Positions 8,283 to 38,669 of a stretch of DNA of 64,000 nt are shown here, piece after piece. Position numbers and translations under genes: made by a program. The DNA is from a virus: IMG/VR virus record IMGVR_UViG_3300045988_177049, positions 45,537-109,536 of that record, one strand, 5' to 3'. The number at the start of each line of letters is the position of its first letter. Position 1 is the stretch's first letter. Below the pieces are notes generated by a model. It had not been told where the DNA came from. It saw only the letters and a list, made by a program, of their open reading frames with translations, and made no database searches.

Positions 8283-8299
8283 TCATCGTCTGTAAAATT

Positions 8300-11907: not shown

Positions 11908-12246
11908 CTATTCGTCTGCATCCTCACCGTGATCATCCGATGCGGTGAGCGAACGATTCAGTGTCAGTGACGCCGAAAACTTCAAAACGTCATAATCAGG
12001 CACTCGGCCCGAGCCTGACTTCGTAAACTGCACAGCATGACCATGCTTATGCAACCGATAAAAGCGCCCGAAACCTGTCAGCATGACAGAGCCACCTGAT
12101 CGAACGGTTTCAATAATCTCGTCAATGAGAGCGCCGTACACAGCTCGTACCGTCGCTATATCGACGTGCGTCCGATGAGAGACGCGATGCAAGAGCTTCG
12201 TCTTTGTCAGGCGACCATCCTCTCGATTCCTATGTGTCGAAACCAT
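11908..12246 (-). CDS. HU/IHF-family nucleoid-associated DNA-binding protein
   Basis: LTKTKLLHRVSHRTHVDIATVRAVYGALIDEIIETVRSGGSVMLTGFGRFY aligns with the HU pattern of an N-terminal helix plus the conserved GFGxF arm. Confidence 0.65.
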   Translation of the reverse strand: MVSTHRNREDGRLTKTKLLHRVSHRTHVDIATVRAVYGALIDEIIETVRSGGSVMLTGFGRFYRLHKHGHAVQFTKSGSGRVPDYDVLKFSASLTLNRSLTASDDHGEDADE

Positions 12247-12298
12247 AACTTACCCTCGTTTCAATCCTTCCGTTAAAACTAACGATTACATTCATACA

Positions 12299-12313
12299 CC
12301 AGTATAACATACA
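12299..12313 (-). promoter_or_regulatory. 15-nt motif tCATACACCAGTATA, identical to 17042..17056; its minus-strand reading TATACTGGTGTATGA contains a -10-like TATACT
   Basis: An exact 15/15 repeat lies in two intergenic regions, each upstream of a minus-strand gene. Here it is about 53 nt before the HU start. Confidence 0.3.
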
Positions 12314-12369: not shown

Positions 12370-12705
12370 TTAGAACCCGTAGGTAGGCGAATCCTGTGCT
12401 GCATCCATCTCAGGATCGACGTTGTGAGACTGAGTGCGCGTAACAGTCGTTGTCGTCGTCTCCGTTTTCTTACTCATCGTGCCGCGCTGCTCTTCGATGT
12501 AAGCAGCTCGCATCTGTGAGGTGATACCTGTCGCGCCAATGTTGTACATGGCCGAGGCTGCACGATTGAGCACCCCAAGCGACGGAGCACTTTGTCGCTG
12601 ACGCTCAAGACGCCTCTGTCGCTCTTGGTTCCATGCATCACGATCTTCTGGCTTCACGCCAAAAAGATCACCCATCAACCCATCATCTGTTGGAAAACCG
12701 AGCAT
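12370..12705 (-). CDS. hypothetical protein (111 aa)
   Basis: RBS aagggag precedes the start. It sits in the operon between the 553-aa protein and the HU gene. Confidence 0.4.
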   Translation of the reverse strand: MLGFPTDDGLMGDLFGVKPEDRDAWNQERQRRLERQRQSAPSLGVLNRAASAMYNIGATGITSQMRAAYIEEQRGTMSKKTETTTTTVTRTQSHNVDPEMDAAQDSPTYGF

Positions 12706-12754: not shown

Positions 12755-14416
12755 TTAACCGAGTGACGGCTCATCACCATCCTCTCGTTTAAATTGATCG
12801 GACTCACCCATCTCGAACCCATCGTCAACATCATTGAGTTCGAAATCAGTCTCAGCCGTGAATGCCGACGTCTCATGCTCGTTGTACTCCTGGTTGTCAC
12901 GAGCACGGTTGTACGCATGACGACGGCGTTCCTTATCGCTCCTCATCCGCTCCGTGTGTGCATCTGCATGAGCGTTATCATGCCCTGGCGACTCGCGTGG
13001 ATCAGAGTAGAACTCACCCCGCTGCCACCTGTTGTAGGTTTCCTCGGGGCTTGCGGCGAAATCCCGCATCTCCGACCTCCACTGCGAACCATACTGTTGT
13101 GCCCAGTGGCGTTCGATATCAGGATGCGCCTTCGCGACCAATTCCATTGCATGGACGAACGACGTCGAATAGACATCACGCTGGAGATCTCGACCAAAAC
13201 CGTCAAACTCCATGGCTTCAAGCCCACGCTGAGCGCGACGAATCTTTTCACCCATTTGACCTGGGATCGCTTGGGTGTCGAGAGCCTTGTCTCGAACAAA
13301 CCATGCCGAGCCATACGCCATCAACGTCTCATTAAGATCGACAAGGTTACCGTTCAAAGCAGCACGTTCCATCTCACGAGCCATAGTCACGCTGAGCGAC
13401 ATCTCATGCTGCATATCCGACTGCGGGGGTCGCACGGTAAAGGCTCCACTGATAACAGACTCGCCCGCACGTGTCGACCACTTGCCCGACCATGTACGAC
13501 CCAGCTCACCTGTTCGCGGATCAATCTGCTCGGTCATATCCATATCGACCTCGCCATGGGCCGTCTCGACAAAGCGATAGGCCCACTCAGGCTCATACGC
13601 CATACGCTGACCGACGAACATGCGACTAAGCGCACTCACGCGGTCTACATCCAACCCATCGAGCCGAACATCGTCCCAGAAACGCTCCATGAGGCGGTCA
13701 TAGTTCTCTTGCACCTCAGCTGGATCGGCCCCAGGAGCGCGCATTTGCTCAAACGCTGCTTCACTCAGGCCAATATGGGTCAGCGCAGCACTCATCTCGT
13801 TAAACGGAAGACGGTCGCCTCGCTCACTCGCCTCGATACGCTCCAAGCGACGCTTGAGCGACCACGGCAGTTCCCCGCCGTGCTTCTCCTTATGCTCTTG
13901 GATGTCGCGGTTCACCTGCTCACGCTGGTGTTTCCGCCTGGCATTAGCCATGTCTTCAATCGCCATACGAGCATCGCGCGTGAACGACCCTACCTGCTGA
14001 CGAAAGTTCGGCGACAATAGCCACATCGTCACGCCCATACCGAGTGACTCAGCAACAGCTGACATCGATACGCCGTCTTTGAGAGGCACCAAGGCGCTGA
14101 GCACCATCATGGACGCATACGCCTTGTGCTTACCTTTCAGATCGTTGGCGCGAGAGGCGAGATCGGCCTTGCGCCTCTCCCCTTTCAGATTCACTTGCTT
14201 CAACGCGTGTAAATACCCATCAGCGTGGCTACGCATCTCACGGCGAAGCTGTTGTCCCCAGTCCAGACGTGGAACACCTTGAACAGGGGTAGGCTCAGGC
14301 TCCGGCTCAATCACCGGATCAATGACGATCGTCTCCGTCACGTTCTCGTCAACTGCTGGCTTGCGAGGTTCTCCGCCATAGCGGGGTGCTGGAAGCTCAC
14401 GGGGTGGCCGACTCAT
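12755..14416 (-). CDS. hypothetical protein (553 aa) with an acidic C-terminus containing TDFEL and DDGFEM
   Basis: Long ORF translationally coupled to the upstream gene, with 14 nt between its start and the preceding TAG. The C-terminal acidic FEL-like motifs are shared with three upstream proteins. Confidence 0.5.
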   Translation of the reverse strand: MSRPPRELPAPRYGGEPRKPAVDENVTETIVIDPVIEPEPEPTPVQGVPRLDWGQQLRREMRSHADGYLHALKQVNLKGERRKADLASRANDLKGKHKAYASMMVLSALVPLKDGVSMSAVAESLGMGVTMWLLSPNFRQQVGSFTRDARMAIEDMANARRKHQREQVNRDIQEHKEKHGGELPWSLKRRLERIEASERGDRLPFNEMSAALTHIGLSEAAFEQMRAPGADPAEVQENYDRLMERFWDDVRLDGLDVDRVSALSRMFVGQRMAYEPEWAYRFVETAHGEVDMDMTEQIDPRTGELGRTWSGKWSTRAGESVISGAFTVRPPQSDMQHEMSLSVTMAREMERAALNGNLVDLNETLMAYGSAWFVRDKALDTQAIPGQMGEKIRRAQRGLEAMEFDGFGRDLQRDVYSTSFVHAMELVAKAHPDIERHWAQQYGSQWRSEMRDFAASPEETYNRWQRGEFYSDPRESPGHDNAHADAHTERMRSDKERRRHAYNRARDNQEYNEHETSAFTAETDFELNDVDDGFEMGESDQFKREDGDEPSLG

Positions 14417-14430: not shown

Positions 14431-15594
14431 CTACAGCTCGAAACTCGCCTCGTCCCGACGCGCCTGCTGTGGAGCAGGAGCACCCATGCGACGAGTAGTC
14501 GAAGGAACACGCGGAGCAGAGCCAACCTTTATGCTGCTCCCTGGCAGTGCAGCCTGAATCGTTCCTGAAGTCTTCTGAGACTCAGGTGACGGAGCAAGAG
14601 GTCGGCCATCTACATCGCGACCCATTGACGCCATCCATTGCTTGGCAACGTCACCCACACGCACAGGCTGACCTGGGCCGCGCTGAGCACGAACGCTTGC
14701 CGCTGGCACTGAAGCCTGGGCAGGCTGAGAACTCACATTTTCATGCTGGCTCTGCTGCATCTGAGCCATGTTCTGACGATAATATGCGCGTGCATTATTC
14801 AGATCATGGAGCTGCGCATAATCTTGCACCATCGTGTCTTTGCCATAAGGCCGAACATAGTCATGTTCAATCTTACTGATCTCCGCCATGGCTTCATCAT
14901 CGATGAGGATCCCGCTCCAGGCAGCTTCCATAGCAGCGCCATAGAGCTTGTCGCCCTGATCGTTTACGCACGGCTCTAACCATCCCGACCGCGTATAGTC
15001 GGCTTCATAGTACTGAATCTTTTCGCCAGTACGGATAGCTCCATCACGAAGCAAAGCATTAACATGTTCATCCCTCTGTGGCTCGTTCTTATTGATCACA
15101 GTCCTGACCTTATCGGCCAATGATCCTGTCCATTCGTGGGGATCAAGACCGTAGTACTGCTTAATTTCAGCCTCTGTAGGCTGAGGGAATCGCATATCGA
15201 GCCTGAGATCAGCGAGCTTTGCATCATCGACCTGATGAACCGCATAATACGTACGACCAAGAGACTCGGCACCAACAGGAAGGACATACTGATCATCGGC
15301 ATCTTGAATAGCGATCATGGTTGGATCATCAATGATGACACCACCCCATGTCGCCTGGGAGATCGCATCGCGCAACTCGTTATCCACACGACCTTCATAC
15401 TCGTCAAGCTCCATTTCCCGCTCAAAGGCTTTCACGCCATCTCGCAACAGAGCATTCGCATATACGTCTCGATCCGGCATGTCTTTACCGACAATCGCTG
15501 CCATAGTGCCATCGAGCGTGCTGGACCACTCGTATGGTTCAAGACCATAACGCTGCTTGATCTCATCGTTCGTGAGATCTCGATTCATCAACAT
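14431..15594 (-). CDS. internally repeated protein, paralog of 15776..16987, C-terminus ...RRDEASFEL
   Basis: Two ~120-aa internal repeats, EIKQRYGLEPYEW...NALLRDG and EIKQYYGLDPHEWTGSL...NALLRDG. RBS aaggag precedes the start. The C-terminal ~40 aa, LPGSSIKVGSAPRVPST...FEL, is shared with the paralog and with the RNAP-like protein. Confidence 0.55.
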   Translation of the reverse strand: MLMNRDLTNDEIKQRYGLEPYEWSSTLDGTMAAIVGKDMPDRDVYANALLRDGVKAFEREMELDEYEGRVDNELRDAISQATWGGVIIDDPTMIAIQDADDQYVLPVGAESLGRTYYAVHQVDDAKLADLRLDMRFPQPTEAEIKQYYGLDPHEWTGSLADKVRTVINKNEPQRDEHVNALLRDGAIRTGEKIQYYEADYTRSGWLEPCVNDQGDKLYGAAMEAAWSGILIDDEAMAEISKIEHDYVRPYGKDTMVQDYAQLHDLNNARAYYRQNMAQMQQSQHENVSSQPAQASVPAASVRAQRGPGQPVRVGDVAKQWMASMGRDVDGRPLAPSPESQKTSGTIQAALPGSSIKVGSAPRVPSTTRRMGAPAPQQARRDEASFEL

Positions 15595-15775
15595 AGTTGT
15601 CTCCTTTTCGGAAAATAGTACATGTCATCCACCTACTATTGTACCGTATAGACGGACTAATAACGAGACGAATCCCCTGAAAACTCACACAAAACGAGCA
15701 TAAAGAAGCAGGCCATGCTCAGCCCTTGATACAAGAGCATGAGCATGACCCGCTTGCGTGAGTCGCTACAGGACC

Positions 15776-16987
15776 TTACAGTTCAAAACCGCCATCGGCT
15801 TCATACGAATCCGACCTCTGTGGCGCTAACGTGTGAGACACAGACGTTGACCGTACACGAGGTGCCTGACGACCAACAGTGATACTGCTACCAGGAAGCA
15901 CTGCCGCAATAGACCCCTGACGGGAACCTTGAGATGGGGTGGACGAAGATACAGGTTGACCATCAGTGTCACGCCCCATTGAGCGCGTCCATTGCTCCAA
16001 AGCATTAGCGAGCCGAACCTGCTCTTTACCATGAGCACTTCCACCTGTGATTACCGAAAAATCAGCAATTTCCTGAGCCGCTTGTCTCGATAACCCAGGC
16101 TTCTTCTCAGCATGAGACGAAACAAGCGTTGGTGCAGTCTCACGATAATACTTTCGTGCATCATTAAGTTCACGCAACTCGTCATATTGGCGCGTCAACA
16201 ATTCAGGAGCATAGGGAGTCACGTAGTTATGCTCCACCCTCTTGATAGCGTTCATCGTTTCAGCATTGATCAAAATACCATTCTCTACGGCGTCCTTGAT
16301 TGAATCACGCAGATCATAACCATAGACACAAGCATCCGCTCCCATATCATTATATGTTGCGTTCTCGGCCTCAAGCTTCTCCATACCAATCTCGAAAACA
16401 GCCACCTGATCACGCAAGAAACAGTTGACCTGATGTTCCTTATTCGGTGCGTCCTTATTGATAATCGTCCTCACATCGACTGATGTACCCGTCCATTCAT
16501 CAGGTTCAAGACCATAAATCGTCTCGATATACCAATCTGAGGGCCTTTGGTACTGCTCACGCAAAGACTGACGGTAATAAATCTGCAAGGGCTTATTGTA
16601 ATAAACCTCTAAACAAGAACTGAGTAGCGATTCCCCATCACTATGAACCACGTATTCATTATCCACATCATTGATGAACAAATAAGTTTCATCGTTGATA
16701 GAAACACCATTTTCGACAACGCGAGACACAGCATCCCGGAATTCAACGTCATCAGTGAATTCTTCGCCTGGTTCCAACGGAGTGTGCATACTTCGCTTAA
16801 AAAAGTCTGCACTGTCATACAGCAACGCATTGACCTGATCTTCTCGTGCGAGGTCATTCTTATTGATAATCGCTATCACTCGATCAGAAAGCGAACCAGC
16901 CCACTCATGAGCCTCAAGACCATAACGACTCTTGACCTCATCCTGTGGAACTGTTGCCATCCACTCTGACATAACTGACACAGACAT
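15776..16987 (-). CDS. internally repeated protein, paralog of 14431..15594, C-terminus ...EADGGFEL
   Basis: It carries the same YGLExxEWxGS...INKN...VNALL repeat module twice. Start chosen at ATG 16987 after RBS gagagga; the ORF-track start is a TTG. Confidence 0.55.
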   Translation of the reverse strand: MSVSVMSEWMATVPQDEVKSRYGLEAHEWAGSLSDRVIAIINKNDLAREDQVNALLYDSADFFKRSMHTPLEPGEEFTDDVEFRDAVSRVVENGVSINDETYLFINDVDNEYVVHSDGESLLSSCLEVYYNKPLQIYYRQSLREQYQRPSDWYIETIYGLEPDEWTGTSVDVRTIINKDAPNKEHQVNCFLRDQVAVFEIGMEKLEAENATYNDMGADACVYGYDLRDSIKDAVENGILINAETMNAIKRVEHNYVTPYAPELLTRQYDELRELNDARKYYRETAPTLVSSHAEKKPGLSRQAAQEIADFSVITGGSAHGKEQVRLANALEQWTRSMGRDTDGQPVSSSTPSQGSRQGSIAAVLPGSSITVGRQAPRVRSTSVSHTLAPQRSDSYEADGGFEL

Positions 16988-17041
16988 GATACATATTTCC
17001 TCTCTCAAAGCGGGTTTTCAACTCATACACCAGTATATCGT

Positions 17042-17056: not shown

Positions 17057-17131
17057 TTGAGATACACCGGCTCATAAAGAGGAAGCGGGTTGCTCCAATC
17101 ATGAAACAACCCGCTTCCCACGACTGATGAC

Positions 17132-20100
17132 TCACAGCTCGAAGCCATCGTCCTCACTCTCGACAGCAACAGGCGCTGGCACCCGGTACTGAGCTGTCGT
17201 ACTTCTGCTCACATGTGCCGTGCCCGTCTTCGAGCGAACAGGAACAGCCCATGACGTCGACTTGCGTCGTCCGATGGTTTCCTCTACCTCAACGCGAGCC
17301 ACAGTGTCGTCCATCGCGATGACAGGAGCCTCGACTTGCGTCTCCACATCAGCCTGGAGCACCTCTCGCACGCGAGCAGGAGCAAAGCTCTCGTTCCACT
17401 TTCCTTCGAACAAACCGGCTCGCTCATGAGCCAACGTCTGCATCGTCGTGAAATCCCCACCGTACGCCAGGCGATCCATCGGTGAGGCCAACTTTTCGAT
17501 GACCTTCTCATCTTCCAAGTTGAGCATGATGCCGTTGCTATCACTGAGAGCCGTGGCAACCTTCTCGATGTTCTCAGCGTTCACGGTAACGCCCAAACCG
17601 TCGTCACCATAGAACCGAGAGAACGCCTCAACCCACTGCTCCTTCGTCGCTTGAACCGGCTTGTGATCAGCATCCAGAACAGTGTTCCACACGCCATCGT
17701 TTCCCTGAGCGATCATCTGTCCGCGCCACAAACTTCGAGCAGGCCCCATGAGCAGCTCATAACGATGACGTGCATCTACCGGATCATGCTTGGCCTGCAA
17801 AATGCTCTGGGTCACCGGGTAGGTCAACTCCAAAACAGCTTTCAGTTCCTCGTTACGCAGCGCTCGAACGCCGCGCTGAGAGAAGGTTCCAGCAACCCCT
17901 GTACCAAACGATTTCACAGCCGTTGCGTACATGGTACCCTTCTGATCATCGCGCGTGACCTGAGTGGTCGTCAGATCCACATGTGTCTCAGGGTCATATC
18001 CGATGTACTTGGCGTAATCAAGCATCTTCTTGGGCGAACCCTTTGCTCCAGTCTCGATACATGCCTTCTCAACAGAAGCCATGTGCTCGTGAACCGACCC
18101 AAAGGAAAGCACAGCTTCACCATACTGATGACGCAGTGCATCGTGATACATCCGTGATGCAGCAGCGCTCACCTCACGGCTCGTCTCCAAGAACCGCTCA
18201 CGACTAGACTCACCTTCGACGAAATCGTAGTATGCGTTGTTTGCCATCTGGTGAACCTCAGCCATATCTTCCGCATAAAGCGAGTCATAGTGCTGAGACA
18301 CCTTCACGTCCAGCGCATCATGCATCGCCAGAGGGTAGCAACCCTCGTCATCCATGCCTTGACCCAAATCAAGGAGATTCGCCTCAACACTCAGCCTCTC
18401 CATGGCTTGCTCGTGAGCAGCCCCGTGACCCAGGTTGACGACTGCCACCGAGTCACCATCAAAGTCGCCATCGAAACACTTGACCATGTTCGGATTCACG
18501 CTCACACCCGTGAGACGCTCGTCAATGCTCACTCGCATGTAACGAACGCCCGCATCACGGAGCACGGGATCACGCCAGATCAAAGCGTAGTCACCATCAC
18601 GTAAGCGCAGTTTTTTCGCCAGCTCTGGACCAACACCAACTTGATCAATATCAAGCCTGGGGTCCCCTGTCCACACAGCGGTTGCCGAGCGTGGCAAACG
18701 AGAAGCCATCAAGCCTTCCTTGACGACGTTATGTTTACCCGTAAAACGGCGGCGCATGATGTCCTGGGCAATACCGTCGTAAGCCGTCTGTGCGCGGTGC
18801 ATAGCCTCAGCCATCGTTTGACGAGCATCGGCCAAGTCCTTACCCGTCAGCTCACCCGAGGCAGCGCGGTCAGCCGCGTGCTTGTAACGCAGCGCCCACT
18901 CACGGATCGTCAAATAGCGATACGTGTAGTCATGGACCGTTGACGACCCATCATCCAGGTCTTGACCCGAGCGCAAGTGCGAACTCAGCACCGGCACACG
19001 CCACGTGGTATCCGTTGCGTGTAGGGTGCGCTCCCCCGTTGGCATCGTCAATGGGAATGGAATCTCCATATCACCACCAGCGTCACCAATGAGCGCAGCA
19101 AAATCACTCCGAACCTTGCGCACGTCAAACGACCCGCGTTCGGTCACAGGAACCTCACCCATCTCGATGAGACGGCGCGCACCACCAACAGCAAGATCGT
19201 CATGGCCCTCACGCAGCGTCCCATCGGGTTCGATGTCAAGACCGCACACCAGAGCCATCTCACGAAGCTGAGCGAGAGCTTGCAGATTACCACCGTAGAT
19301 CTGCTCCAGCACCTTGTCGCATCCCTGAGACTGCAACGCCCAAGCAAGCTGAGACGAGGCTTTACGTCCCTGACCAGCACGAATAGCAGCGTCATCGTAT
19401 GCAGCAGTCTTTGCATCAACCGTCATATGGGTACCAATGAAGGACACCTGACCGATACCGTTTTCAACAACCTCGCCGTTTGGCAGGTACAACGGAGCGG
19501 TACTCTGCATCGCTTCACGAGCGCTACCACCGTTGAAACGAGACACCGCGCTAAAGGGTGCCATCACGACGTCCAGATCCGGGTTTTGCCTAAACAGATC
19601 CATCATGTCAGTCGATCCATACAGATCTTCGATCTCCGAAGACGTCAATGAGGCATCACGGTCAACAATGAGTGAAATGACACCCTTGTTGCCGTGCATG
19701 TCGGAAATCTTGTCGCCGACAATGAGATCACGCATCTCGCCATCGGTTCCACGAACGCGATATGTACGCGCGAAATCAGCCGAAACAACGATGGAGTCTT
19801 CCATCGTCCATCCACCAGCCGTCATAAACGCCGTGCCCACAGGCTTCGTCACAGACGAGGCATTCATGAGATTCGATGTTGTCATCTGTTGACGATCGAA
19901 AGGATCATAGCTCATGAACTCAGCTTGTTTCGTCAGCATGAGCGGAGCACGATCACCCTTGTCTGAGGGAACAATCGACCCATCGACGTTCACCTGAGCA
20001 CCAGAAACCAGATAACGAGTCACGCCTTGGTTGACACCGCTCGATGTCATGATCGGATCAAAGTAGCCATCGGCTTCCTCACTGAGCAACGACATATTAC

Positions 20101-22585
20101 GACCGCCCGTGAGCACCCACGGATCCATCGTCGTGTCGTTGGCGGGATCGCCGCTAAAACCCTGTTCCCGTGCGCGAGATGCACGGAAATCCGCATCAAT
20201 GGTTGATCCATCACGCAGTGCATTCGGATAGCGCACGCGGCGCGCTTCGGTGGCAAGAATTGCATCGAGAATCTCTCGATCCATACCCTCTTCAAGGGCA
20301 CGCTCATAGTGATCTGCTCGATGGCGCGTATCAGTCAGCCTACGATACACACCGTTAAGGGAGGCAGGCTCACCGACGCGAGACCGGCCTGTGAGCACGT
20401 CAGCTTGAACCCGATAGCGAATCGCATCACTCATCTGCTGTTCGTAACCGATCAGCCGAGTGCGCTCTTCGAGAGACTTCTTTTCTCCGGGTTTTTGACT
20501 GACGACGCGCGCCTCAAAGCCTGGCACGATCATGAGATCGTTACCGGAGTTGAAACGAGTGATGATCTCTCCATTCTCACCGCGAGCGAAGATCTGTCCG
20601 ATCGTTCCGCTCACAGGCTCTTCTCGACCTGTTTGGGAACGCATGATTGAGCCGGTCCACTCCACGACACCGTTTGCATCGACGCGGATCGATCCAGGAG
20701 TAACCGCGCACGATTCAAGCGTGTCTGACACGACTTGAAGCATCGATGTGGTGAACTCATCGTCCACAACGTCCATTGACAACGCCGTGGACTCGTCGAA
20801 AGTGATCAATCGATCCCTAAATGCGTTGGAATAGAAAGATTCTCCAACGATCTTTTCCTTCGGCAAACGCGCGGTACGCATTGCAGCCACAAGATCATCG
20901 TTGTTACGCCACTGACCGTATTCACTGGTCATGTAACGAGCAGTACGCACGGGATCAAAGACAAACTCATCCGACTCAATCGGTGCATCCACACCGATTT
21001 GAGTATCGAGTAGATCACGCAGGTGCGCACGAACGCGCTCTTCTGGACTTCCCGTGTAAGCCACAGAACCGGCCAACATGTCGTGAACACCAGACAGATC
21101 GCTGTCTTGGTCCATCTCATCGAGCAACCCTGTTGCTTCGGCGTACTCAGACCTAGTTGCATCAGGCTTGAGCAATGTGGTCTCTGCTCCGCGCAGAACG
21201 TCCCAATACGCGCGCCCAACGGCTGCAAGATCAGGATCGCCAGACAACACAGGAACATACGTCCCCTCGCGTGCAGCGTCTTCATGCTCGCTGAGCTGAC
21301 GGATCAAACCGTCAACATCGAGCTGCTGCTCCACATTGATGCGAGCACTACGAACAGCATCGGTGATAAACGTCGATGCCTGGGTTCGACCTTCGGGCGT
21401 ATCAACGAAGAACCGAGACGAGGCAGAACGCTCCTTCATCTGACGACGGATGACCACCTGCTCACCGTTTGCTCCCGGCATGTCCTTATACGCACTCGTG
21501 AGCGTGTCTGTGGACAAATACGACTCTTGAAGCGTCTTATTCTTGCTCTGACGCTGACCAACGTGGCCGACAAGACCTTTACCGTCCTTGCGCTCCACGG
21601 GGCGTCCCAAGGCGACGCGCACAAGGTCGCACACCTCATCAACAGTGGGTGTGTACGCCACCTGCTTGTTATCTCGACGAGCAGTCGTGGAGAAGTACAG
21701 CGTTGCACCGTTGTCATAGACACGACCCACCCACTGCTCTTTGTCTCGGGTATCGGTCAGACGCACCGTCATATTCGTTCCCGTGAGTCGAGCACGAATC
21801 TGACCGGGACGCAAGTCCTTTTCAATCGTGTAGGGAATACCTTCTTCGGCCAACATATCGAGCACAGCTCGGGAGCGAGCAAGTGCGTCGGTACTCATGA
21901 ACTGACGGGCGTTATAGCGTCCCGTCTCAGGGTTACGTGCACCATCAAGTACCCACTGACGAACATCGTTGTACTCAGCCGTCGTCATGCGACCCATGAG
22001 TTCAGTCAGGCCCGAGATATCATCGAGGCTGAGTGCCCGGCCTGCTTCTTTCGCATCGCCGTCTTCGTTCAGACGATAGAGCTTGAGTTCCGAGGATGTG
22101 ACCTTTTCCAGACTACTCGGCTTGCCATCGGCAAATGCAGCAATGTCATCATCGAGAATATACAAAATCGATGAACCAGCTTGCTTGACGCTTCGGCGGG
22201 TTCCCCACCGAGGATCATAAGGAGAGATCGGCAAACGAGGTCCAGCAGCTCCTGTAGATCCGCTCAGACCAATCGTCGCCGTAAAGTCTTTGTACAACGC
22301 CTTGTAGCCCTTACTTGATGTATCGGCAGGCTGGAACAAGGCTTTGTATCCTGGGACGTTCTCACTCATGACGCTTTGAATAGCGTCGAGTGCTTCGGGG
22401 ACGCCTAAGTCCCCATCGTTAAACGAACGTCCATTTTCATTAAGCTTGGCTTCCATGAGATCTCGCAAGTGCCGACCCTGTGAAACCAGGATCGGAGAAC
22501 CAATCAACTCACTCGTTCGATTGATCGTACGGGCGATCATGTACTCATACATGTACCGACGCAAACCAGCATTACGCGTTTGCAT
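17132..22585 (-). CDS. single-polypeptide two-barrel RNA polymerase-like protein (1817 aa) carrying both the beta-subunit and beta-prime-subunit catalytic motifs of multisubunit RNAPs
   Basis: LIVGDKISDMHGNKGVISLIV matches the beta DPBB signature GDKxAGRHGNKGVVS. About 350 aa downstream, VKCFDGDFDGDSVAVVNL matches the beta-prime Mg-binding NADFDGD signature. RBS aaggag precedes the start. The C-terminal tail ...VAVESEDDGFEL resembles those of the two downstream paralogs. Confidence 0.7.
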   Translation of the reverse strand: MQTRNAGLRRYMYEYMIARTINRTSELIGSPILVSQGRHLRDLMEAKLNENGRSFNDGDLGVPEALDAIQSVMSENVPGYKALFQPADTSSKGYKALYKDFTATIGLSGSTGAAGPRLPISPYDPRWGTRRSVKQAGSSILYILDDDIAAFADGKPSSLEKVTSSELKLYRLNEDGDAKEAGRALSLDDISGLTELMGRMTTAEYNDVRQWVLDGARNPETGRYNARQFMSTDALARSRAVLDMLAEEGIPYTIEKDLRPGQIRARLTGTNMTVRLTDTRDKEQWVGRVYDNGATLYFSTTARRDNKQVAYTPTVDEVCDLVRVALGRPVERKDGKGLVGHVGQRQSKNKTLQESYLSTDTLTSAYKDMPGANGEQVVIRRQMKERSASSRFFVDTPEGRTQASTFITDAVRSARINVEQQLDVDGLIRQLSEHEDAAREGTYVPVLSGDPDLAAVGRAYWDVLRGAETTLLKPDATRSEYAEATGLLDEMDQDSDLSGVHDMLAGSVAYTGSPEERVRAHLRDLLDTQIGVDAPIESDEFVFDPVRTARYMTSEYGQWRNNDDLVAAMRTARLPKEKIVGESFYSNAFRDRLITFDESTALSMDVVDDEFTTSMLQVVSDTLESCAVTPGSIRVDANGVVEWTGSIMRSQTGREEPVSGTIGQIFARGENGEIITRFNSGNDLMIVPGFEARVVSQKPGEKKSLEERTRLIGYEQQMSDAIRYRVQADVLTGRSRVGEPASLNGVYRRLTDTRHRADHYERALEEGMDREILDAILATEARRVRYPNALRDGSTIDADFRASRAREQGFSGDPANDTTMDPWVLTGGRNMSLLSEEADGYFDPIMTSSGVNQGVTRYLVSGAQVNVDGSIVPSDKGDRAPLMLTKQAEFMSYDPFDRQQMTTSNLMNASSVTKPVGTAFMTAGGWTMEDSIVVSADFARTYRVRGTDGEMRDLIVGDKISDMHGNKGVISLIVDRDASLTSSEIEDLYGSTDMMDLFRQNPDLDVVMAPFSAVSRFNGGSAREAMQSTAPLYLPNGEVVENGIGQVSFIGTHMTVDAKTAAYDDAAIRAGQGRKASSQLAWALQSQGCDKVLEQIYGGNLQALAQLREMALVCGLDIEPDGTLREGHDDLAVGGARRLIEMGEVPVTERGSFDVRKVRSDFAALIGDAGGDMEIPFPLTMPTGERTLHATDTTWRVPVLSSHLRSGQDLDDGSSTVHDYTYRYLTIREWALRYKHAADRAASGELTGKDLADARQTMAEAMHRAQTAYDGIAQDIMRRRFTGKHNVVKEGLMASRLPRSATAVWTGDPRLDIDQVGVGPELAKKLRLRDGDYALIWRDPVLRDAGVRYMRVSIDERLTGVSVNPNMVKCFDGDFDGDSVAVVNLGHGAAHEQAMERLSVEANLLDLGQGMDDEGCYPLAMHDALDVKVSQHYDSLYAEDMAEVHQMANNAYYDFVEGESSRERFLETSREVSAAASRMYHDALRHQYGEAVLSFGSVHEHMASVEKACIETGAKGSPKKMLDYAKYIGYDPETHVDLTTTQVTRDDQKGTMYATAVKSFGTGVAGTFSQRGVRALRNEELKAVLELTYPVTQSILQAKHDPVDARHRYELLMGPARSLWRGQMIAQGNDGVWNTVLDADHKPVQATKEQWVEAFSRFYGDDGLGVTVNAENIEKVATALSDSNGIMLNLEDEKVIEKLASPMDRLAYGGDFTTMQTLAHERAGLFEGKWNESFAPARVREVLQADVETQVEAPVIAMDDTVARVEVEETIGRRKSTSWAVPVRSKTGTAHVSRSTTAQYRVPAPVAVESEDDGFEL

Positions 22586-22821
22586 AACATTCTCCTTTTC
22601 AGGTTCGGCCCAGTCGGACCGATCGGGTGATTACCCTTACATATTACCTGAAAAACCCACGCTTTTCAACGGAAACACTGTCGAAACGCTTTTGTATCGA
22701 GTACGATAAATACGTAGATGTCATATCGCAAACCCCGGTGTCACGGACAAACATTTTCCGTGTGTAACATCCGACAAGCCATATGACCATCTCTCAACAC
22801 ACAACAGAAAGGACACTCACC

Positions 22822-24213: not shown

Positions 24214-24306
24214 TACCTCACACAGGGCGCGAGTAGCGGCGGTTCGTATGACACATGTTGTGCGAGCCGCCGCTTCCTTTTGCACCACACCGACAAAGGA
24301 GTAACC

Positions 24307-24828
24307 ATGGCTTCCAATACCGTTCTGGCCGAACAACACCACTACAAACGACACATGCCCTCGGTTGCGACAGTCGTCAAGTACTGGCGTACACATCCCC
24401 AACTATGGATGAAAGGCGTAGTTATTGGTTGGAACATTCCGTTTTGTTTCGCGTGCGGCTGGATCCCGCCTGTGAAGATTCACAACGGTTTCAAATGGAA
24501 GGGCGCGAGCCGTTTTCTTGAACGTGCTCACCTGCAAAATCATTGCGTGCGCGGAAACGATAAACCATCGAACATCGTCCTTCTATGCCCACTATGCCAC
24601 AGTGCAATGCCACGGTTTCAATCACGCAAAGAAGCGCTGCACTGGGTATCCAAACAGTACTCTTACCGTATGCGAACCACCAGCACAGCGCTCCATGATG
24701 CCTCTTGGCAGCTCTACACCAACACGCACCCGTGTTGTGATCAAGACGATATCCGCGAGCTGTACAGACTGTTTTTGATCAGCGTCATGCTTCAGGCTCA
24801 AGAGGTGGCACACCTAATGCATCCATAA
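24307..24828 (+). CDS. HNH (His-Me finger) endonuclease
   Basis: RBS aaggag precedes ATG 24307. The segment ERAHLQNHCVRGNDKPSNIVLLCPLCH matches the H-N-H pattern with its Cys pairs. Confidence 0.55.
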   Translation: MASNTVLAEQHHYKRHMPSVATVVKYWRTHPQLWMKGVVIGWNIPFCFACGWIPPVKIHNGFKWKGASRFLERAHLQNHCVRGNDKPSNIVLLCPLCHSAMPRFQSRKEALHWVSKQYSYRMRTTSTALHDASWQLYTNTHPCCDQDDIRELYRLFLISVMLQAQEVAHLMHP

Positions 24829-27587: not shown

Positions 27588-30500
27588 TCACTCGTTCTCT
27601 CGGCGCTCATGGATACGAGCCATAGCTCGATCAAAAGCACCGTTACCGAGATCTTCCCACGATTCACAGCTGTTCAAGAACTTATAGAACGCGTCGTGAA
27701 CCTGCCACGAGCCAAGCTCAGCAGCATTCATGATCGACTCATCGTCACCATACACACCTTGGGTGGCATCAGACGATGCATCCTGGATCGCGCGCAGCTC
27801 AGAGCTTGACAAGCCCTGGCTGATGTACACCCGACCTTCAAGCGAGCACAGTGACCCGTTCGCGTCCACTCTAAAGAACCGGGCGTCTCCTGCAAGTTCA
27901 CGCTTGGTCTCACGGTACGCAGCGATGATCTCATCATCAAGACTATGGATCACACTTCCGTTGTCACCGATAAAATCAGCACGGCTGATCTGACCTTCGG
28001 CATACCGCTTCTTCTTCCGATCATCCATAATCTTCTGCTGCACGGCCATTTCTTGCTGAACGTCCTCATTGATCACGTCATCTTGACTAAAGACATCATA
28101 ACCCGCTCCCACGAAAGCACGATACGCGTCCTCACTCATCATGTCGTATTCTTCGGACTCATCACTTTGACCTTGGCGTTCTGCCTCAATGGATGCAATG
28201 AGATCCATGACCTCAGCCGAGTACACGTCTGGGTCCAAAATCGAGATGCCGTAATCATCCAGGTTATAAGCATCTTGGTACAGATTCATTGCCTCAGCAG
28301 CGTTTGCAGCCTGTTCAATACGCTTGTCCAGCATCTTGACAAAGTCAGGCTGGTTCAAGCGCACATCGAACTCAAGTGCAGACGAAAGGGTTGGAATCGT
28401 CTGGAGCGAATACGTGTGTCCTGGATGCTGAATCGTGTCTTTGAACAAACGCCACGACATCGGCAGGATCTCTGCATTGCGGTTCCAGATCGGTGAGATA
28501 CCAGCGGAGAAGATGATTGAATTACGCTCCGGCAAAAATGCCAAGTCATTGTACCCAATCACAGACTCTTCCTTCGCACTGATCGTGTACGAGACCTTGC
28601 CCTCAACATTCAAACCTTCGATGAGACGCTCGGTATCCTGAGTCACCGTCTTCGAGTCTCGCACCGCGCGGTGGCGCGTACCTGACATCTTCGCCAATGT
28701 CTCAATCATCGTATCGTCCGTCGATTTCAGAAACACAATATTGGCAACGTTTCCTTGGATGATCTTATCTACCGAGTCGCCATAGACGTCTCTAGCCTGC
28801 TGCAACGTTTGAAGAATCAACGTAAATTGCTGCTCCTGGCCCAAACCAATCGACAACATGGTTTCGAACCCGGCGATACCGTGGCCCTCAGACTGCAAGT
28901 TACCCAACTCGTCAAGCATGAAGCGCGTCTTGTACAACGGCTTCTGGCTCGACTTGGTCATGTAAGACTTATCAAAGTTCAAGTCCACCAATTGCTTCAC
29001 GAGGATCAGCACGAGTTTCGCGTACTTCATCAAGTGCGGTGGCGTCACCAGGAACACAGCCTTGGGTTGTTCCGAGTACCGCACCGACGACAAGATAATG
29101 GCAGGCACGCTCTCTCGCACCGTCTGAGGCTTCCCAGCCTTATCGAGAAGACGAGTCGTGGGGTAGTTCAGATGACCTGGAACAAGTTTTCCATCCGGCC
29201 CCTTCACCATCTCCACGAGAACACCATTACGGATGATCTTGCTTCCCGTCACAGGGTCTTTGACGAACTTACGACCATTCAGGGACAACTGGTACCCCTT
29301 CGTGAACTGAAAATAGAACGTCTTCAAGAGCACGCCGGTATGCGGATTAAACAAGCGCAGTCGCAAGTATGCGACATCGTGAGGGAACTTCCCATCGAAG
29401 TAGTAACGCGCCCAACCTTCTCGCACAACTGTGTCTTCGTGCTCAAAGTCTTTCCCGAGGTTGTGTGTCAACTCGGGATCATCAAAGGCATCCCACTTCG
29501 CCTGAGCACCAATGAGACCGTCTCGCTTAGTGAAGTTTTGTGCGAAACGGACACCGAAACGACGAGGGAACGACAACCCGCCCAAGTCAGTGTTCTGGGA
29601 GGGCGTACCAGAAGTCAGTGTCGAGATCGTCGGATCAGTAAAGAAGCTCATTGCGGTGATCGCAATACCGTAGACAGACGCAAGCATCTTCTCAGCTCCC
29701 GCCATTGCACGAAGCGCATTGTTGGCGTTGGCAATGAGCGTGCGCATCGTCGACTGAGGTAGAGCCTCGGTCGCGTTAAAGAACAAGGTGAGCAGGTCCA
29801 GCTCAGGCTTGTCTTCCCACAAGAACTCAATACGCTCGGCTTGTGCCTGGTCGTGATTGATCGCTTCCTGACGTTCGTCCTCGTCCTGAATCTGGTCGTA
29901 ATACCCACCCTTGAGACGCTCGTTCATCTGAGTCATGGGCGACTTGCGCTTCTTCGAGGTGAGCTGCACAAAAAGCTGGTAGCAGTTATAGAGCGTGACT
30001 TTACCCCACATGGCATCGAGCTTTTGTTCCAAAACCTTTTGATCCATGCCATGTCGCATCGCATACTGACGCAACTGGTGCTCTTCTTCCAGGTAGTAGT
30101 CGATCAAGCCGTATGCTGCACGCTTGAACGCGTTGTTTGCAGCGTTCGGCCACACCGGGTCTTCTGCACCATCGACTGGGAAGAACACGTCTGCGATGTT
30201 TTCAACGTAGAGAGCACACTTGGTCTGGTCACCTTCGCGTGCTGCCTCAGCAGCCATCCCAAGCGGATTGTAAATGTCCGTTTTCATGGCATTGATGAGG
30301 TTAAACTGCACAACCTGGAACCCGCGCATGGTGGCACGGACGTAATTTTTCACCAAAAGTTCGCCCTTGGGGTCATTGATGACCATGTTGTCCGGGCGCT
30401 TTTGGCGCATCCAGATATCGAGCATCGGTTCAATGTAGGTCTGACCTTTACCAGCACGAGTCATAGCAAGGATCATGGTGTTGGCAGGGGCTGTATCAAC

Positions 30501-31628
30501 GTAATACACACCAGCCGGGCGCTGAGGCTCATACGTAGGCAGCTCCCACTCCCCATTCACCAGATCGGCGAGCGTGGCAAAACCTTTGAGCTTATCTCGG
30601 CTCGCGTTCCCGGGGTTGTAAGGAACAGTGCTGGGGTCGAGACGCCGACGCAGTTTATCGTTGTCAGGCAGACCCGAGGCGTCCCACAAAGCCGTTCCAA
30701 AGGCTTCATCGAACATCGGAACCATGTCAGTGATCGGGGTTCCGTGTTCATCGGTGAGAACCTCGCCCTTGAACAAAGTCACGTCGTCATCTTCATCAAG
30801 AATGTCTGTCTCAGCACGCTTGGCAAACGCCACCGGCTTAATACCCTTATTCGCCACCATCGAGTGTGAAATGAGCGTTGTCGCACTGACCCCTGTGTGT
30901 GCTCCAACATCGGGAACAACGTCGAAACGCTCGCGCACCTCTTCGGGCAAGGCCACGTGCTGATCGTTCTTGTACTGGTTAATATCCGTGGTGTCACGCA
31001 TGAGGTTCTGAGCCTTAAGATTGCGCATCAAGACCAGACGCAGCGCCCCCCATGCTGCTCCACCAGCGAAGGCGGAGACGAAAAACTTGATCCAACCGAG
31101 TGAGAAGATCCACCCCAGAGCACTCCCAGGTTGATCAGCCATCTGAGCATCCCGCTCGGCCTTTTCTGCTGCCACAGCGTCCTTATGCCACTGTGGTTCA
31201 GGAACGTCCTTGGCTGACTCGTAACACGTCTCATCAGATGGGTCAGGCGACCCATCCTCTAGAGCCGGAGAATAACACACCTCGCTGATCACAGAACGGT
31301 GCAAAGCTTTGGTAAGATCCCTGTTCTCAACCGAATAGCTCGGTACAGACGAGTGCCACAGCGAGTCTTTCACCGCTGCAATGCCCATCGAACCAAACGA
31401 AATGATCACCCAGACGGAAATGAAAACAAGTATGCCGACCGCTGCTGAGGCGATCTCACGAGAGCGAGGAGAGAGCTTTGCTTCAATCTCACTACGCTCA
31501 AGCTGCTGATCCCCGTGAACATCCTGGTACGCCAAGGAGTCCAGCTCGTCTTGCTGACCGAGCTGTGCCCACGCTTGGCTCCCCTTTTCACGAGGGGCCT
31601 GCCCTCTGGCTTTTCGACGCCAACCCAT
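27588..31628 (-). CDS. type IV secretion coupling protein (VirD4/TraG family), unusually long at 1346 aa
   Basis: Two N-terminal TM helices. The Walker A-like AMTRAGKGQT matches VirD4 PTRSGKG, and VINDPKGEL matches the T4CP DPKGE motif. About 700 aa of extra C-terminal sequence follows. Confidence 0.7.
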   Translation of the reverse strand: MGWRRKARGQAPREKGSQAWAQLGQQDELDSLAYQDVHGDQQLERSEIEAKLSPRSREIASAAVGILVFISVWVIISFGSMGIAAVKDSLWHSSVPSYSVENRDLTKALHRSVISEVCYSPALEDGSPDPSDETCYESAKDVPEPQWHKDAVAAEKAERDAQMADQPGSALGWIFSLGWIKFFVSAFAGGAAWGALRLVLMRNLKAQNLMRDTTDINQYKNDQHVALPEEVRERFDVVPDVGAHTGVSATTLISHSMVANKGIKPVAFAKRAETDILDEDDDVTLFKGEVLTDEHGTPITDMVPMFDEAFGTALWDASGLPDNDKLRRRLDPSTVPYNPGNASRDKLKGFATLADLVNGEWELPTYEPQRPAGVYYVDTAPANTMILAMTRAGKGQTYIEPMLDIWMRQKRPDNMVINDPKGELLVKNYVRATMRGFQVVQFNLINAMKTDIYNPLGMAAEAAREGDQTKCALYVENIADVFFPVDGAEDPVWPNAANNAFKRAAYGLIDYYLEEEHQLRQYAMRHGMDQKVLEQKLDAMWGKVTLYNCYQLFVQLTSKKRKSPMTQMNERLKGGYYDQIQDEDERQEAINHDQAQAERIEFLWEDKPELDLLTLFFNATEALPQSTMRTLIANANNALRAMAGAEKMLASVYGIAITAMSFFTDPTISTLTSGTPSQNTDLGGLSFPRRFGVRFAQNFTKRDGLIGAQAKWDAFDDPELTHNLGKDFEHEDTVVREGWARYYFDGKFPHDVAYLRLRLFNPHTGVLLKTFYFQFTKGYQLSLNGRKFVKDPVTGSKIIRNGVLVEMVKGPDGKLVPGHLNYPTTRLLDKAGKPQTVRESVPAIILSSVRYSEQPKAVFLVTPPHLMKYAKLVLILVKQLVDLNFDKSYMTKSSQKPLYKTRFMLDELGNLQSEGHGIAGFETMLSIGLGQEQQFTLILQTLQQARDVYGDSVDKIIQGNVANIVFLKSTDDTMIETLAKMSGTRHRAVRDSKTVTQDTERLIEGLNVEGKVSYTISAKEESVIGYNDLAFLPERNSIIFSAGISPIWNRNAEILPMSWRLFKDTIQHPGHTYSLQTIPTLSSALEFDVRLNQPDFVKMLDKRIEQAANAAEAMNLYQDAYNLDDYGISILDPDVYSAEVMDLIASIEAERQGQSDESEEYDMMSEDAYRAFVGAGYDVFSQDDVINEDVQQEMAVQQKIMDDRKKKRYAEGQISRADFIGDNGSVIHSLDDEIIAAYRETKRELAGDARFFRVDANGSLCSLEGRVYISQGLSSSELRAIQDASSDATQGVYGDDESIMNAAELGSWQVHDAFYKFLNSCESWEDLGNGAFDRAMARIHERRENE

Positions 31629-34064: not shown

Positions 34065-34216
34065 TGAAATCCTTTCGTTTGATCAAATGGGTGATGGAGC
34101 CGGTACCACCACCCAACCACGGTAATGAATGGTACCGGCATCGCGAGGTTTACACTCGTGTATCAGCATATCACACTTTTATGCACCGATGTTGATACAC
34201 GAGCATATTCGCACTA

Positions 34217-37990: not shown

Positions 37991-38117
37991 ATTAACACTC
38001 CGTTCAATCGATTAACTTGGTATACCAGCATTCTAGCACAATCACTCGACAATAAAAAATCACCCTCGCCAGATTTCTCCAGCGAGGGTGAAACGGAGGT
38101 GTAAACCTACCAAACGA

Positions 38118-38669
38118 TCAGAACTCCGGTTCGTCGTTCTCGATCTCAGCAACCTCTTCAACCTGCGCCTCGGCGCTAACCTCGGCTTCTGCGTCCTTCT
38201 GAGCAGCCTTGCGAGCTTCATTAGCTTCCTTAGCTGCCTTCGAAGCTGCACGCAGCTCATCGAAGATCTTATCGTCGATCGCCAACTCCGAAGGCTCAAG
38301 AGTCTTCGTGTTGATGACAAGACCAGTCTGCTTACCAGATGCAGGCATCACGTCTGCCTTCACCGCGTAAACGCGAGGTCCCGGATGACCGTCACGCTCA
38401 GGCATCTGAACGAAGTTATCGCCAGCCGCAGCAACAATAGCATCTCGCTGAGACACACTGTAACCGGCCTGGTGATCATACACCGTTCGACCATCCAATT
38501 CACGCTTCTTCGACACCAGGTGAGGAACTTGCTGGGGTGCAACACCCTCAACAGGACGCACCTGTGCATCCAGGAAGAAACGATCGCCAGCCTTTGAGTG
38601 TGCGTTGGGGTATTCGACAACCACCAGCTCGACACCACTCATTGAACCCTTACCACGTAGAATAGCCAT
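38118..38669 (-). CDS. hypothetical protein with a Lys/Ala/Glu-rich acidic tail ending ...ENDEPEF
   Basis: ORF of 183 aa directly downstream of the relaxase gene on the same strand. The C-terminal EPEF is shared with ORF 41205..42308. Confidence 0.45.
   Translation of the reverse strand: MAILRGKGSMSGVELVVVEYPNAHSKAGDRFFLDAQVRPVEGVAPQQVPHLVSKKRELDGRTVYDHQAGYSVSQRDAIVAAAGDNFVQMPERDGHPGPRVYAVKADVMPASGKQTGLVINTKTLEPSELAIDDKIFDELRAASKAAKEANEARKAAQKDAEAEVSAEAQVEEVAEIENDEPEF

Follow-up and report, generated by a model that had tools for sequence, protein, structure and literature searches.

Single-chain RNA polymerases (RNAPs) of the NCgl1702-like type have been noted in computational work since 2003. 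NCgl1702 of Corynebacterium glutamicum has been described as a distant β::β′ fusion with no role assigned to it, an isolated and fast-evolving oddity (PMC2919709, PMC7824862), and RNAPs of this type lack the sandwich-barrel hybrid motif (SBHM) 'flap' that is inserted in the β barrel (PMC7824862). Here we describe an RNAP gene in a 64,000-nucleotide stretch of DNA (positions 45,537 to 109,536 of IMG/VR virus record IMGVR_UViG_3300045988_177049; hereafter the window), which is probably part of a conjugative, plasmid-like element of oral Actinomyces. Its product is a true homolog of NCgl1702, with the same β-to-β′ order and the same invariant motifs. NCgl1702 has 2169 amino acids (aa) and the element RNAP 1817 aa, and in the present case the family is represented by a core gene of a complete module with a MobL relaxase and a coupling protein.

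Eight residues are universal in two-barrel RNAPs, namely the three Asp of DxDGD, the Arg and Pro of switch 2, one β Asp and two β Lys (PMC2919709). A fifth carboxylate beside the β Asp, equivalent to Rpb2 E836, is missing from YonO-like enzymes and from enzymes of the RNA-dependent RNA polymerase (RdRP) type (PMC2919709). YonO, of the Bacillus subtilis prophage SPbeta, is described in PMC5467207 as a DNA-dependent RNAP, likewise a single two-barrel chain encoded on a mobile element. It is an enzyme of about 100 kDa on the RdRP-like branch and is without the fifth carboxylate (PMC2919709), whereas the element RNAP is about 200 kDa and keeps this residue. The element RNAP also has no detectable phage relatives and appears nearer to the cellular subunits; it is set apart from YonO here by YonO's description.

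Fusions of the two modules in the same order on one chain are known from Orf6 (Rpb2::Rpb1) of the Kluyveromyces lactis killer plasmid pGKL2 and from the β::β′ protein of Helicobacter. Compared by description, Orf6 resembles the element RNAP in being plasmid-encoded and in serving host-independent transcription, but it belongs to a eukaryotic cytoplasmic linear plasmid; the Helicobacter fusion is cellular, and neither is linked to conjugation. gp96 of phage P23-45 (PDB 8h2m/8h2n), a single-chain two-barrel RNAP, enters the target cell with the DNA and transcribes the first genes, and provides an analogy for the export proposed below. The N4 virion RNAP, Sog and TraC are nucleotidyl-transferases that enter a new host with DNA and launch the programme of the element (PMC5512222). 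By analogy they would be the closest functional precedent for the export hypothesis, but the N4 enzyme is T7-like and Sog and TraC are Toprim primases, with folds unrelated to that of the element RNAP. A survey of transferred conjugative proteins reported no two-barrel RNAP (PMC5512222).

It is an open question how a conjugative element expresses its first genes on arrival in a new host, when it is not yet double-stranded and has to face active host defences. The answers known to us are the host RNAP and single-strand promoters. The placement of the family described here points to another solution, in which the element brings its own transcription enzyme. We found no paper that ties the family to conjugative transfer, older accounts of gene context lying outside the literature covered.

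A single polypeptide with two catalytic modules

The gene and the sites within it that carry its identification are as follows (coordinates are those of the window).

17132..22585, minus strand: RNAP gene of the NCgl1702-like family; open reading frame (ORF) with an ATG start, 1817 aa, predicted single chain with two barrels
19796..19801, minus strand: β-type acidic pair E929-D930 (..GGWTMEDSIVVS..), equivalence by motif context
19673..19717 (aa 957-971), minus strand: β-type double-psi β-barrel signature GDKISDMHGNKGVIS, which includes K959 and K967
18440..18478 (aa 1370-1382), minus strand: β′-type Mg-binding signature FDGDFDGDSVAVV, with D1374, D1376 and D1378

Shortly upstream of FDGDFDGDSVAVV lies a WRDP sequence resembling switch 2, with R1338 and P1340. 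Judged by motif context, D930 is the universal β carboxylate and E929 the fifth carboxylate. In an alignment of 39 family sequences, the residues equated with the universal eight on the same grounds (D1374, D1376, D1378, R1338, P1340, D930, K959 and K967) were all invariant, and position 929 was D or E in 38 of the 39. Both signatures are practically invariant throughout the family, which in this alignment is conserved over its entire length. Bridge-helix-like and trigger-loop-like stretches are also conserved; a fragment search of these against PDB sequences matched nothing.

Pfam recognized RNA_pol_Rpb2_6 at aa 950-976 (27.6 bits, cut-off 23.4) and RNA_pol_Rpb1_2 at aa 1328-1382 (28.0 bits, cut-off 25.3), and the two families recurred in 16/17 and 17/17 homologs, respectively. 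Matches in NCBIfam were weak, to archaeal A′ and bacterial β. The top PDB sequence match was the tape-measure-fused virion RNAP of P23-45 (around DFDGD, E 7e-6), with Rpb1 next.

A preliminary description of this DNA had proposed that one polypeptide carries β-type and β′-type catalytic modules, and this is borne out by the motifs, the Pfam matches and the fold matches given below. The pairing of motifs that it noted holds, but the distance between them does not: from GDKISDMHGNKGVIS to FDGDFDGDSVAVV there are about 417 residues rather than about 350. Its estimate that the protein is about two thirds the size of β plus β′ agrees with the 1817 aa found here, the E. coli subunits totalling about 2750 aa. 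It was also right to separate the gene from host rpoB/rpoC, as identity to cellular subunits is 10-20% and the normal flanking domains of rpoB/rpoC are absent. From its motifs and its modelled fold, the gene product is very probably a real two-barrel polymerase of the NCgl1702-like type.

Predicted structure

For aa 650-1817, an AlphaFold model based on 17 sequences had a mean predicted local distance difference test score (pLDDT) of 80.3 and a predicted template modelling score (pTM) of 0.76. Foldseek matched this model to 670 PDB chains at E<=1e-3, the top matches being bacterial β′ (E 2.7e-11, 930-1050 columns), and in the fold comparison both β-type and β′-type modules were matched. The split phage enzymes scored like the top bacterial β′ matches (phiKZ 15.4, AR9 13.9), and single-chain enzymes scored lower (P23-45 gp96 11.7, QDE-1 11.7, P74-26 gp62 10.1, crAss gp66 8.8). 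The profile of the family matched Rpb1, β′ and A′ over about 210 positions (E. coli β′ 240-494) with E values from 1e-10 to 6e-9. On these models the RNAP appears structurally nearer to the cellular subunits than to enzymes of the YonO/RdRP type, which is apparently a new point.

The catalytic region is preceded by a long N-terminal part.

20636..22585, minus strand: N-terminal ~650 aa of the RNAP, conserved along its length and confidently modelled, without a recognizable fold relative

The model of the N-terminal 700 aa reached a pLDDT of 85.3, and in Foldseek it gave no significant PDB fold match (best E 0.04, TM <= 0.12). As modelled, the RNAP is in effect a minimized β-to-β′ fusion behind a novel N-terminal region of about 650 aa.

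The NCgl1702-like family

In a database search we obtained 96 full-length homologs with identities of 36-96% and lengths of about 1800-2300 aa, nearly all of them annotated as 'hypothetical'; the named homologs belong to Arthrobacter, Microbacterium, Plantibacter, Cryobacterium and Streptomyces. The nearest relatives (96% and 86% identity) were found on contigs of a metagenome-assembled genome from an uncultured Actinomyces, and in human oral metagenomes. An exhaustive profile search gave at least 443 family clusters at 50% identity (E<=1e-30), and in nearly all of these 443 the catalytic core begins around residue 650-900. One of the hits, P0091, is a cluster that holds BAB99168.1 of C. glutamicum ATCC 13032, which is the 2169-aa NCgl1702 (Cgl1702); the RNAP and P0091 are 39% identical, with 92% of the query covered (E 0). 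By these sequence comparisons the RNAP belongs to the 'NCgl1702-like RNAP of mobile elements' family, and it is a further member of a known, experimentally uncharacterized family.

Homologs were found in 77 genomic loci. Full-length homologs lie on plasmids of Streptomyces, Rhodococcus and Gordonia, and core-only homologs with 24-27% identity lie on plasmids of Staphylococcus and Lactococcus; the family therefore reaches beyond Actinomycetota. The Firmicutes homologs, which adjoin topoisomerase III on MOBP-typed plasmids, are 'hypothetical proteins' of about 1800 aa on the Staphylococcus plasmid SAP020A (locus L002, 12327-17750) and on the Lactococcus plasmids H9-H13. No homolog was found by tblastn (E 1e-5) in 50,697 phage genomes, a collection in which the membership of SPbeta is unconfirmed.

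Three further statements of the preliminary description need to be revised in the light of these data. It had treated enzymes of this kind as rare, known from a few prophages and phages, and the family instead comprises the clusters counted above and is found on plasmids. It had classed the protein as YonO- or phage-virion-type; the placement in the NCgl1702-like family, the retained fifth carboxylate, the lack of a match among the phage genomes and the lack of virion genes in the element speak against this. Finally, the occurrence of such a gene in a conjugative element, which it considered unusual, is the rule in this family, as the same synteny is seen on Gordonia pGKT2 and homologs occur in the 77 loci.

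Conjugation module around the polymerase gene

The genes of the module, in window order, are as follows.

11908..12246, minus strand: HU-like DNA-binding protein (PF00216, E 1e-9)
12370..12705, minus strand: 111-aa protein, C-terminus ..DSPTYGF, conserved in some related loci
12755..14416, minus strand: 553-aa partner protein, C-terminus ..DGDEPSLG, conserved in 27 loci (blastp)
14431..15594, minus strand: 387-aa protein, C-terminus ..DEASFEL, 38% identical (E 1e-70) to its 410-aa paralog
15776..17008, minus strand: 410-aa protein, C-terminus ..ADGGFEL, paralog of the 387-aa protein, Actinomyces lineage only
27588..31628, minus strand: type IV coupling protein (VirD4/TraG-like), 1346 aa (Pfam; pGKT2 synteny)
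31776..34064, minus strand: 762-aa conserved protein, function not assigned, between the ClpB-like ATPase and coupling-protein genes
34217..37990, minus strand: ClpB-like double-AAA+ ATPase, likely with an intein and its LAGLIDADG endonuclease (Pfam; conserved upstream of the coupling protein)
38118..38669, minus strand: 183-aa protein, C-terminus ..ENDEPEF, tail-bearing
38805..41129, minus strand: MobL-family relaxase (PF18555, E 2e-63), C-terminus ..DASDDIELG, tail-bearing
41205..42308, minus strand: 367-aa protein, C-terminus ..EDEEPEF, tail-bearing
44456-46351, minus strand: cell-wall hydrolase (Pfam)
54856-57132, minus strand: topoisomerase (Pfam)

The presence of MobL and of domains of the type IV secretion system (T4SS) agrees with the proposal that the RNAP gene lies in a conjugative element beside coupling-protein and relaxase genes. 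The coupling protein carries T4SS-DNA_transf, TraG-D_C and TrwB_AAD_bind domains (Pfam). The whole module is collinear with that of Gordonia pGKT2, in which genes for a topoisomerase, an ATPase, two large proteins, a lysozyme, MobL, a ClpB-like ATPase, an 866-aa protein, the coupling protein and the RNAP follow one another in this order. Across the MobL modules of Actinomycetota, the conserved order is ClpB-like ATPase, ~800-aa protein, coupling protein, RNAP, ~570-aa partner and HU-like protein. The RNAP gene directly follows the coupling-protein gene in other genera; in the window, about 5 kb of opposite-strand cargo (22783-27484) parts the two.

In Streptomyces, Arthrobacter and Kribbella, orthologs of the 553-aa partner begin right at the end of the RNAP gene (-22 to +6 nt relative to its stop codon), and a database search with the partner returned only unnamed homologs. 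In 65 loci an HU-like gene follows the RNAP gene at a distance of about 2.2 kb. Like the gene for its 410-aa paralog, that for the 387-aa protein is restricted to the Actinomyces lineage (local blastp). Searches of Pfam, NCBIfam, PDB and PHROG gave no match for the 553-, 410-, 387-, 762-, 1082-, 709-, 493-, 367-, 294- and 313-aa proteins; the 709-aa protein, without a match in Pfam, NCBIfam or PHROG, is the positional counterpart of the pGKT2 'AAA family ATPase'. From this gene order, the RNAP appears to be a core syntenic gene of MobL-type conjugation modules, accompanied by a conserved partner and an HU-like gene, and this too is apparently a new point.

Some features of the neighbouring genes are recorded here. 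The likely intein in the ClpB-like ATPase (about aa 640-920) gave a match to LAGLIDADG_3 and weak matches to Hint and Hom_end, and a second ClpB-like gene, at 1428-3269, has no intein. The 410- and 387-aa paralogs (14431-17008) each contain an internally duplicated unit of about 170 aa with the motif YGLEP.EW...VNALLRDG; repeat family D1 has four copies. Of the proteins encoded by the cargo at 22783-27484, one is a Pro/Thr-rich surface protein of 476 aa whose sortase-type anchor is LAHTG, another is HNH-like, and a third, of 594 aa, combines four treble-clef zinc fingers (DUF4379) with a weak REase_MTES_1575 match.

The element

IMG/VR holds many near-identical contigs of 105-126 kb that are labelled viral (loci L081-L103, L128 and L145). 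One of them, IMGVR_UViG_3300045988_175253 (111,856 bp), shows a circular permutation with respect to the window, and the element is therefore probably a circle of about 112 kb. We inspected about 103 of the 112 kb. In this part, Pfam and PHROGs revealed no capsid, portal, terminase or tail gene, and we therefore read the element as a conjugative plasmid-like replicon misfiled as viral; it is probably a circular replicon of about 112 kb from oral Actinomyces. It is abundant in human oral metagenomes, in clusters of 571-681 member sequences.

Element genes outside the window specify a D5-type primase/helicase, a DNA-polymerase-like protein, an SNF2 helicase, a RarA-like ATPase and an SSB (a protein that binds single-stranded DNA), together with an actin-like partition protein, a sortase and AgI/II-type adhesins. 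No primase was found within the 64-kb window, the D5-type enzyme lying outside it. The replication and segregation set (L145, 1-5662; L127, 13255-13767 and 17785-19056) includes the 1073-aa DNA-polymerase-like protein (phrog_1252) and the actin-like (ALP_N) protein. With its own replication and segregation set and an RNAP, the element is an unusually autonomous replicon.

A shared C-terminal tail

The C-terminus of the RNAP is predicted to be disordered.

17135..17314, minus strand: disordered C-terminal ~60 aa of the RNAP, ending ..ESEDDGFEL (pLDDT <30, model residues 1109-1168)

The RNAP and the 410- and 387-aa proteins are the only three of 403 ORFs that end in FEL. Across the family, the last 12 residues contain on average 3.2 acidic and 0.28 basic residues, and in 97% of members a hydrophobic or aromatic residue is found within the last four. 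We described the tail by a pattern in which an acidic residue is followed by Φ-[EQSDG]-[LFY] and an optional G or A, the last six residues being free of K and R. This pattern is present in 8 of 42 window proteins, compared with 0.18 expected from internal positions. The eight fall into two runs of consecutive genes, one encoding the RNAP and the 410-, 387-, 553- and 111-aa proteins, and the other the 367-aa protein, the MobL relaxase (..DDIELG) and the 183-aa protein. None of the 31 element proteins outside the window has the pattern.

Related elements carry tails of their own. In the sister element L003, an identical VDDGFEL terminates the RNAP and the two proteins downstream of it, and a fourth protein ends in DGFEPSL. 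On pGKT2 the RNAP, the relaxase and no fewer than six neighbours have a local variant (GP-x-L-G): the RNAP ends in ..EGLGA and the downstream protein in ..GPELGA, with ..GPQLGG, ..GPQLG, ..GPSL and ..GPEMSA as further examples and ..SPGM on the relaxase. NCgl1702 ends in ..GGFEL, and the Staphylococcus homolog of SAP020A in ..DKGFELEM. That a tail is common to proteins of the RNAP cluster and of the relaxase cluster, including the relaxase itself, appears to be a new observation.

Since conjugative T4SSs have the relaxase as their canonical protein substrate, the simplest unifying reading of these sequences would be that the tail is shared for recognition by the coupling machinery, and it is a candidate substrate signal for Gram-positive T4SSs. 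Short, flexible, acidic C-termini with a terminal hydrophobic residue are found in the 'E-block' of Legionella Dot/Icm substrates, the acidic tail of F TraD and the ..MGF tail of EsxB, which is bound by the type VII secretion system ATPase EccC; these tails are read by coupling-type ATPases or adaptors. They belong to other secretion systems and phyla, and their likeness to the element tails serves as a lead only.

A separate resemblance concerns the proteins that flank the relaxase (38118-38669 and 41205-42308), which end in ..NDEPEF and ..DEEPEF; a pGKT2 protein (L001, 28337-28651) ends in ..GEEPPF. The tips of actinobacterial SSBs are closely alike, with ..NDEPPF in the pGKT2 SSB and ..DQDNPPF in the element's own SSB, and the tails of these three proteins may be SSB-tail mimics.

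Candidate promoter and terminator, and a repeated 15-nt motif

Candidate transcription signals were located at the following sites.

22641..22669, minus strand: σ70-like promoter site TTGAAA-17-TAATAT upstream of the RNAP gene (consensus match)
17080..17125, minus strand: GC-rich hairpin and T-run, terminator-like, directly 3′ of the RNAP stop (a scan detects part of it, 17096-17082)
12292..12306, minus strand: 15-nt motif copy that precedes the HU-like gene by 46 nt, just past the hairpin that follows the 111-aa gene
17023..17037, minus strand: 15-nt motif TATACTGGTGTATGA, ~35 nt upstream of the 410-aa gene, after the hairpin at the RNAP stop
34151-34165, plus strand: inverted copy
34193..34207, minus strand: copy upstream of the 762-aa and coupling-protein genes
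36119-36133, minus strand: copy inside the ClpB-like ORF
38018..38032, minus strand: copy with one mismatch, 28 nt upstream of the start of the ClpB-like gene
57095-57109, minus strand: copy at the start of the topoisomerase gene

The TTGAAA-17-TAATAT site is the sole minus-strand site in 11 kb, and the regional total of such sites is not above chance. With a candidate promoter site of its own upstream and a hairpin and T-run after its stop, the RNAP gene is not clearly the first gene of one long operon, which is what the preliminary description took it to be.

In its degenerate form TATRCTSGTRTAYSA, the 15-nt motif has seven matches compared with 0.06 expected, and none of 100 shuffled sequences reached seven. 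Only this form is clearly enriched; an exact 17-nt form has two copies only, a count reached by 2 of 100 shuffles. All but one of the seven copies have the coding-strand orientation, and most lie a short distance upstream of genes of the transfer module; the motif is kept in the sister elements L003 and L004. It contains a -10-like TATACT and a short inverted repeat (dyad). Judged by sequence and position, it may serve a transfer regulon as promoter or operator, and the strong enrichment of this transfer-module motif in the element appears to be a new observation.

Proposed role and alternative explanations

Taken as a whole, the explanation that we prefer is that an active DNA-dependent RNAP provides element-autonomous transcription tied to transfer, and that it is possibly exported with the relaxase. 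We hold this account tentatively, at slightly less than an even chance. Its parts differ in strength. That the element has dedicated transcription linked to transfer is somewhat favoured, and the export of the RNAP through the T4SS, suggested by the tails, is plausible while remaining the more doubtful component. The data above show what the protein is, its fold and catalytic residues, the synteny, the sharing of tails and the enrichment of the motif; we infer the catalytic activity, the choice of template and promoter, and the export. In the donor, the host RNAP would express the RNAP gene from the σ70-type promoter. The RNAP, its partner and a few neighbouring proteins would be made with the flexible acidic-aromatic tail that is present on the relaxase too. 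The coupling protein would recognize this tail, perhaps once the neighbouring ClpB-like ATPase has unfolded its bearers, and the tail-bearing proteins would be exported along with the transferred strand. In the recipient, the RNAP would make RNA from the element DNA without need of the host enzyme; the tail on the relaxase is compatible with such transcription in the recipient. The outcome would be early expression of element genes, perhaps from sites at the 15-nt motif. A more specific version, which we regard as rather unlikely, has the RNAP, its partner and a few neighbours acting as 'pilot' proteins that would pass through the conjugation channel with the relaxase, marked by a previously unrecognized acidic-aromatic signal; the unusually long coupling protein would read the signal with help from the ClpB-like unfoldase, and transcription or priming in the recipient would precede the action of any host enzyme.

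Several points weigh against the preferred explanation. We found no experimental study, biochemical or genetic, of any family member in the literature. The structure models rest on only 17 sequences. The tail pattern was set after the data had been seen, which inflates its P-value; the tails differ among genera, and that of the pGKT2 relaxase (..TSPGM) is only loosely alike. We know of no C-terminal T4SS signal established for Gram-positive systems, and assembly at the coupling protein or relaxosome, within the donor cell, is an equally possible function of the tail. By its sequence, the 15-nt motif would fit a host-σA promoter with a repressor operator at least as well as a dedicated promoter, and the host-type promoter site upstream of the RNAP gene could let the recipient express the enzyme without protein transfer. 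Profile searches (Pfam, NCBIfam and PHROG) recognized no VirB4-type ATPase.

The main rival explanation is that the enzyme stays in the cell that makes it, as in a T7- or YonO-like cascade. The RNAP, made by the host, would then transcribe the transfer and maintenance operons from the 15-nt motif, only in cells that carry the element, and the tails would serve assembly or localization at the coupling protein or relaxosome, with no export. The promoter site of the RNAP gene is host-type and differs from the motif, the motif precedes several transfer-module genes in far more copies than expected, and the element has a high degree of autonomy, with a DNA-polymerase-like protein, a D5-like primase/helicase and an SSB of its own; YonO is reported in PMC5467207 to be a functional RNAP of SPbeta. 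We nevertheless consider a purely resident role about as unlikely as the pilot proposal, as it leaves unexplained why the relaxase, the sole protein known to exit the donor, bears the tail and why the tail is restricted to eight clustered proteins; moreover, the -10-like hexamer and dyad of the motif point to a host promoter and operator. The tail evidence that suggests export would serve as well for a conjugative primase surrogate, an RNAP that, exported or made early, would prime complementary-strand synthesis on the incoming single strand as Sog and TraC do. Two-barrel relatives such as QDE-1 work on single-stranded templates, and no primase was found in the window. Exported primases are established in conjugation (PMC5512222). 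This role is nevertheless improbable: the D5-type primase/helicase and the DNA-polymerase-like protein outside the window weaken the case, and a 200-kDa enzyme with a conserved partner and an HU-like protein seems elaborate for priming alone.

It is much less probable still that the element is a phage or phage-plasmid and the protein a virion or non-virion phage RNAP. Near-identical copies do occur on the 105-126-kb contigs in IMG/VR, the P23-45 virion RNAP is the top PDB sequence match, the element has phage-like traits in its inteins, homing endonucleases, tRNAs and deoxynucleoside monophosphate kinase, and NCgl1702 reportedly lies within the CGP3 'prophage' of C. glutamicum. Against this, no virion gene was found by Pfam or PHROGs in the roughly 103 kb inspected, and a virion module would not fit into the remaining 9 kb or so; the element has a relaxase and a coupling protein as well as a sortase, adhesins and an actin-like partition protein, and tblastn found no match among the phage genomes searched. 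An artefact, in the form of chance motifs or of a fused or misassembled fragment of host rpoB/rpoC, might be suspected from the short stretch that each Pfam match spans. It is ruled out by the conserved architecture of the family, which is the same over the full length of the 96 close homologs and recurs in the clusters of the profile search; low identity to cellular subunits, missing rpoB/rpoC flanking domains and about 650 novel N-terminal residues also argue against it.

Among these readings, transcription by the element's own RNAP in connection with transfer remains the one that we prefer. A single-chain, cellular-type RNAP family of at least 443 clusters is hard-wired beside the coupling protein in Gram-positive conjugation modules. 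If active, the enzyme would be a compact β/β′-type polymerase useful for studies of minimal RNAP mechanism and evolution, and it would probably escape rifamycin-type control of transfer. Were the pilot proposal true, it would be a conjugative counterpart of the phage virion RNAPs.

Other features of the window

Two tRNA genes, tRNA-Leu(CAA) at 63517-63603 and tRNA-Pro(UGG) at 63927-64000, lie at the right end of the window and inside the element. No integrase was found within the window, and a role of the tRNA genes as an integration site was not confirmed; because none was found nearby, they may be element-encoded rather than an attachment site.

The N-terminal and C-terminal parts of a UvrD-like helicase seemingly occupy separate ORFs (4060-6003 and 7032-8282, respectively), split by a LAGLIDADG endonuclease ORF (6344-7045). 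The arrangement is called likewise in a metagenome contig, and the split could be due to insertion of a homing endonuclease or to a degenerate intein. A MazF/PemK-like toxin, a SocA/Panacea antitoxin-domain protein and two non-specific DNA/RNA endonucleases are encoded at 8298-9095, 10343-11098, 61072-61731 and 62137-62892, and are likely to be addiction or defence-type cargo.

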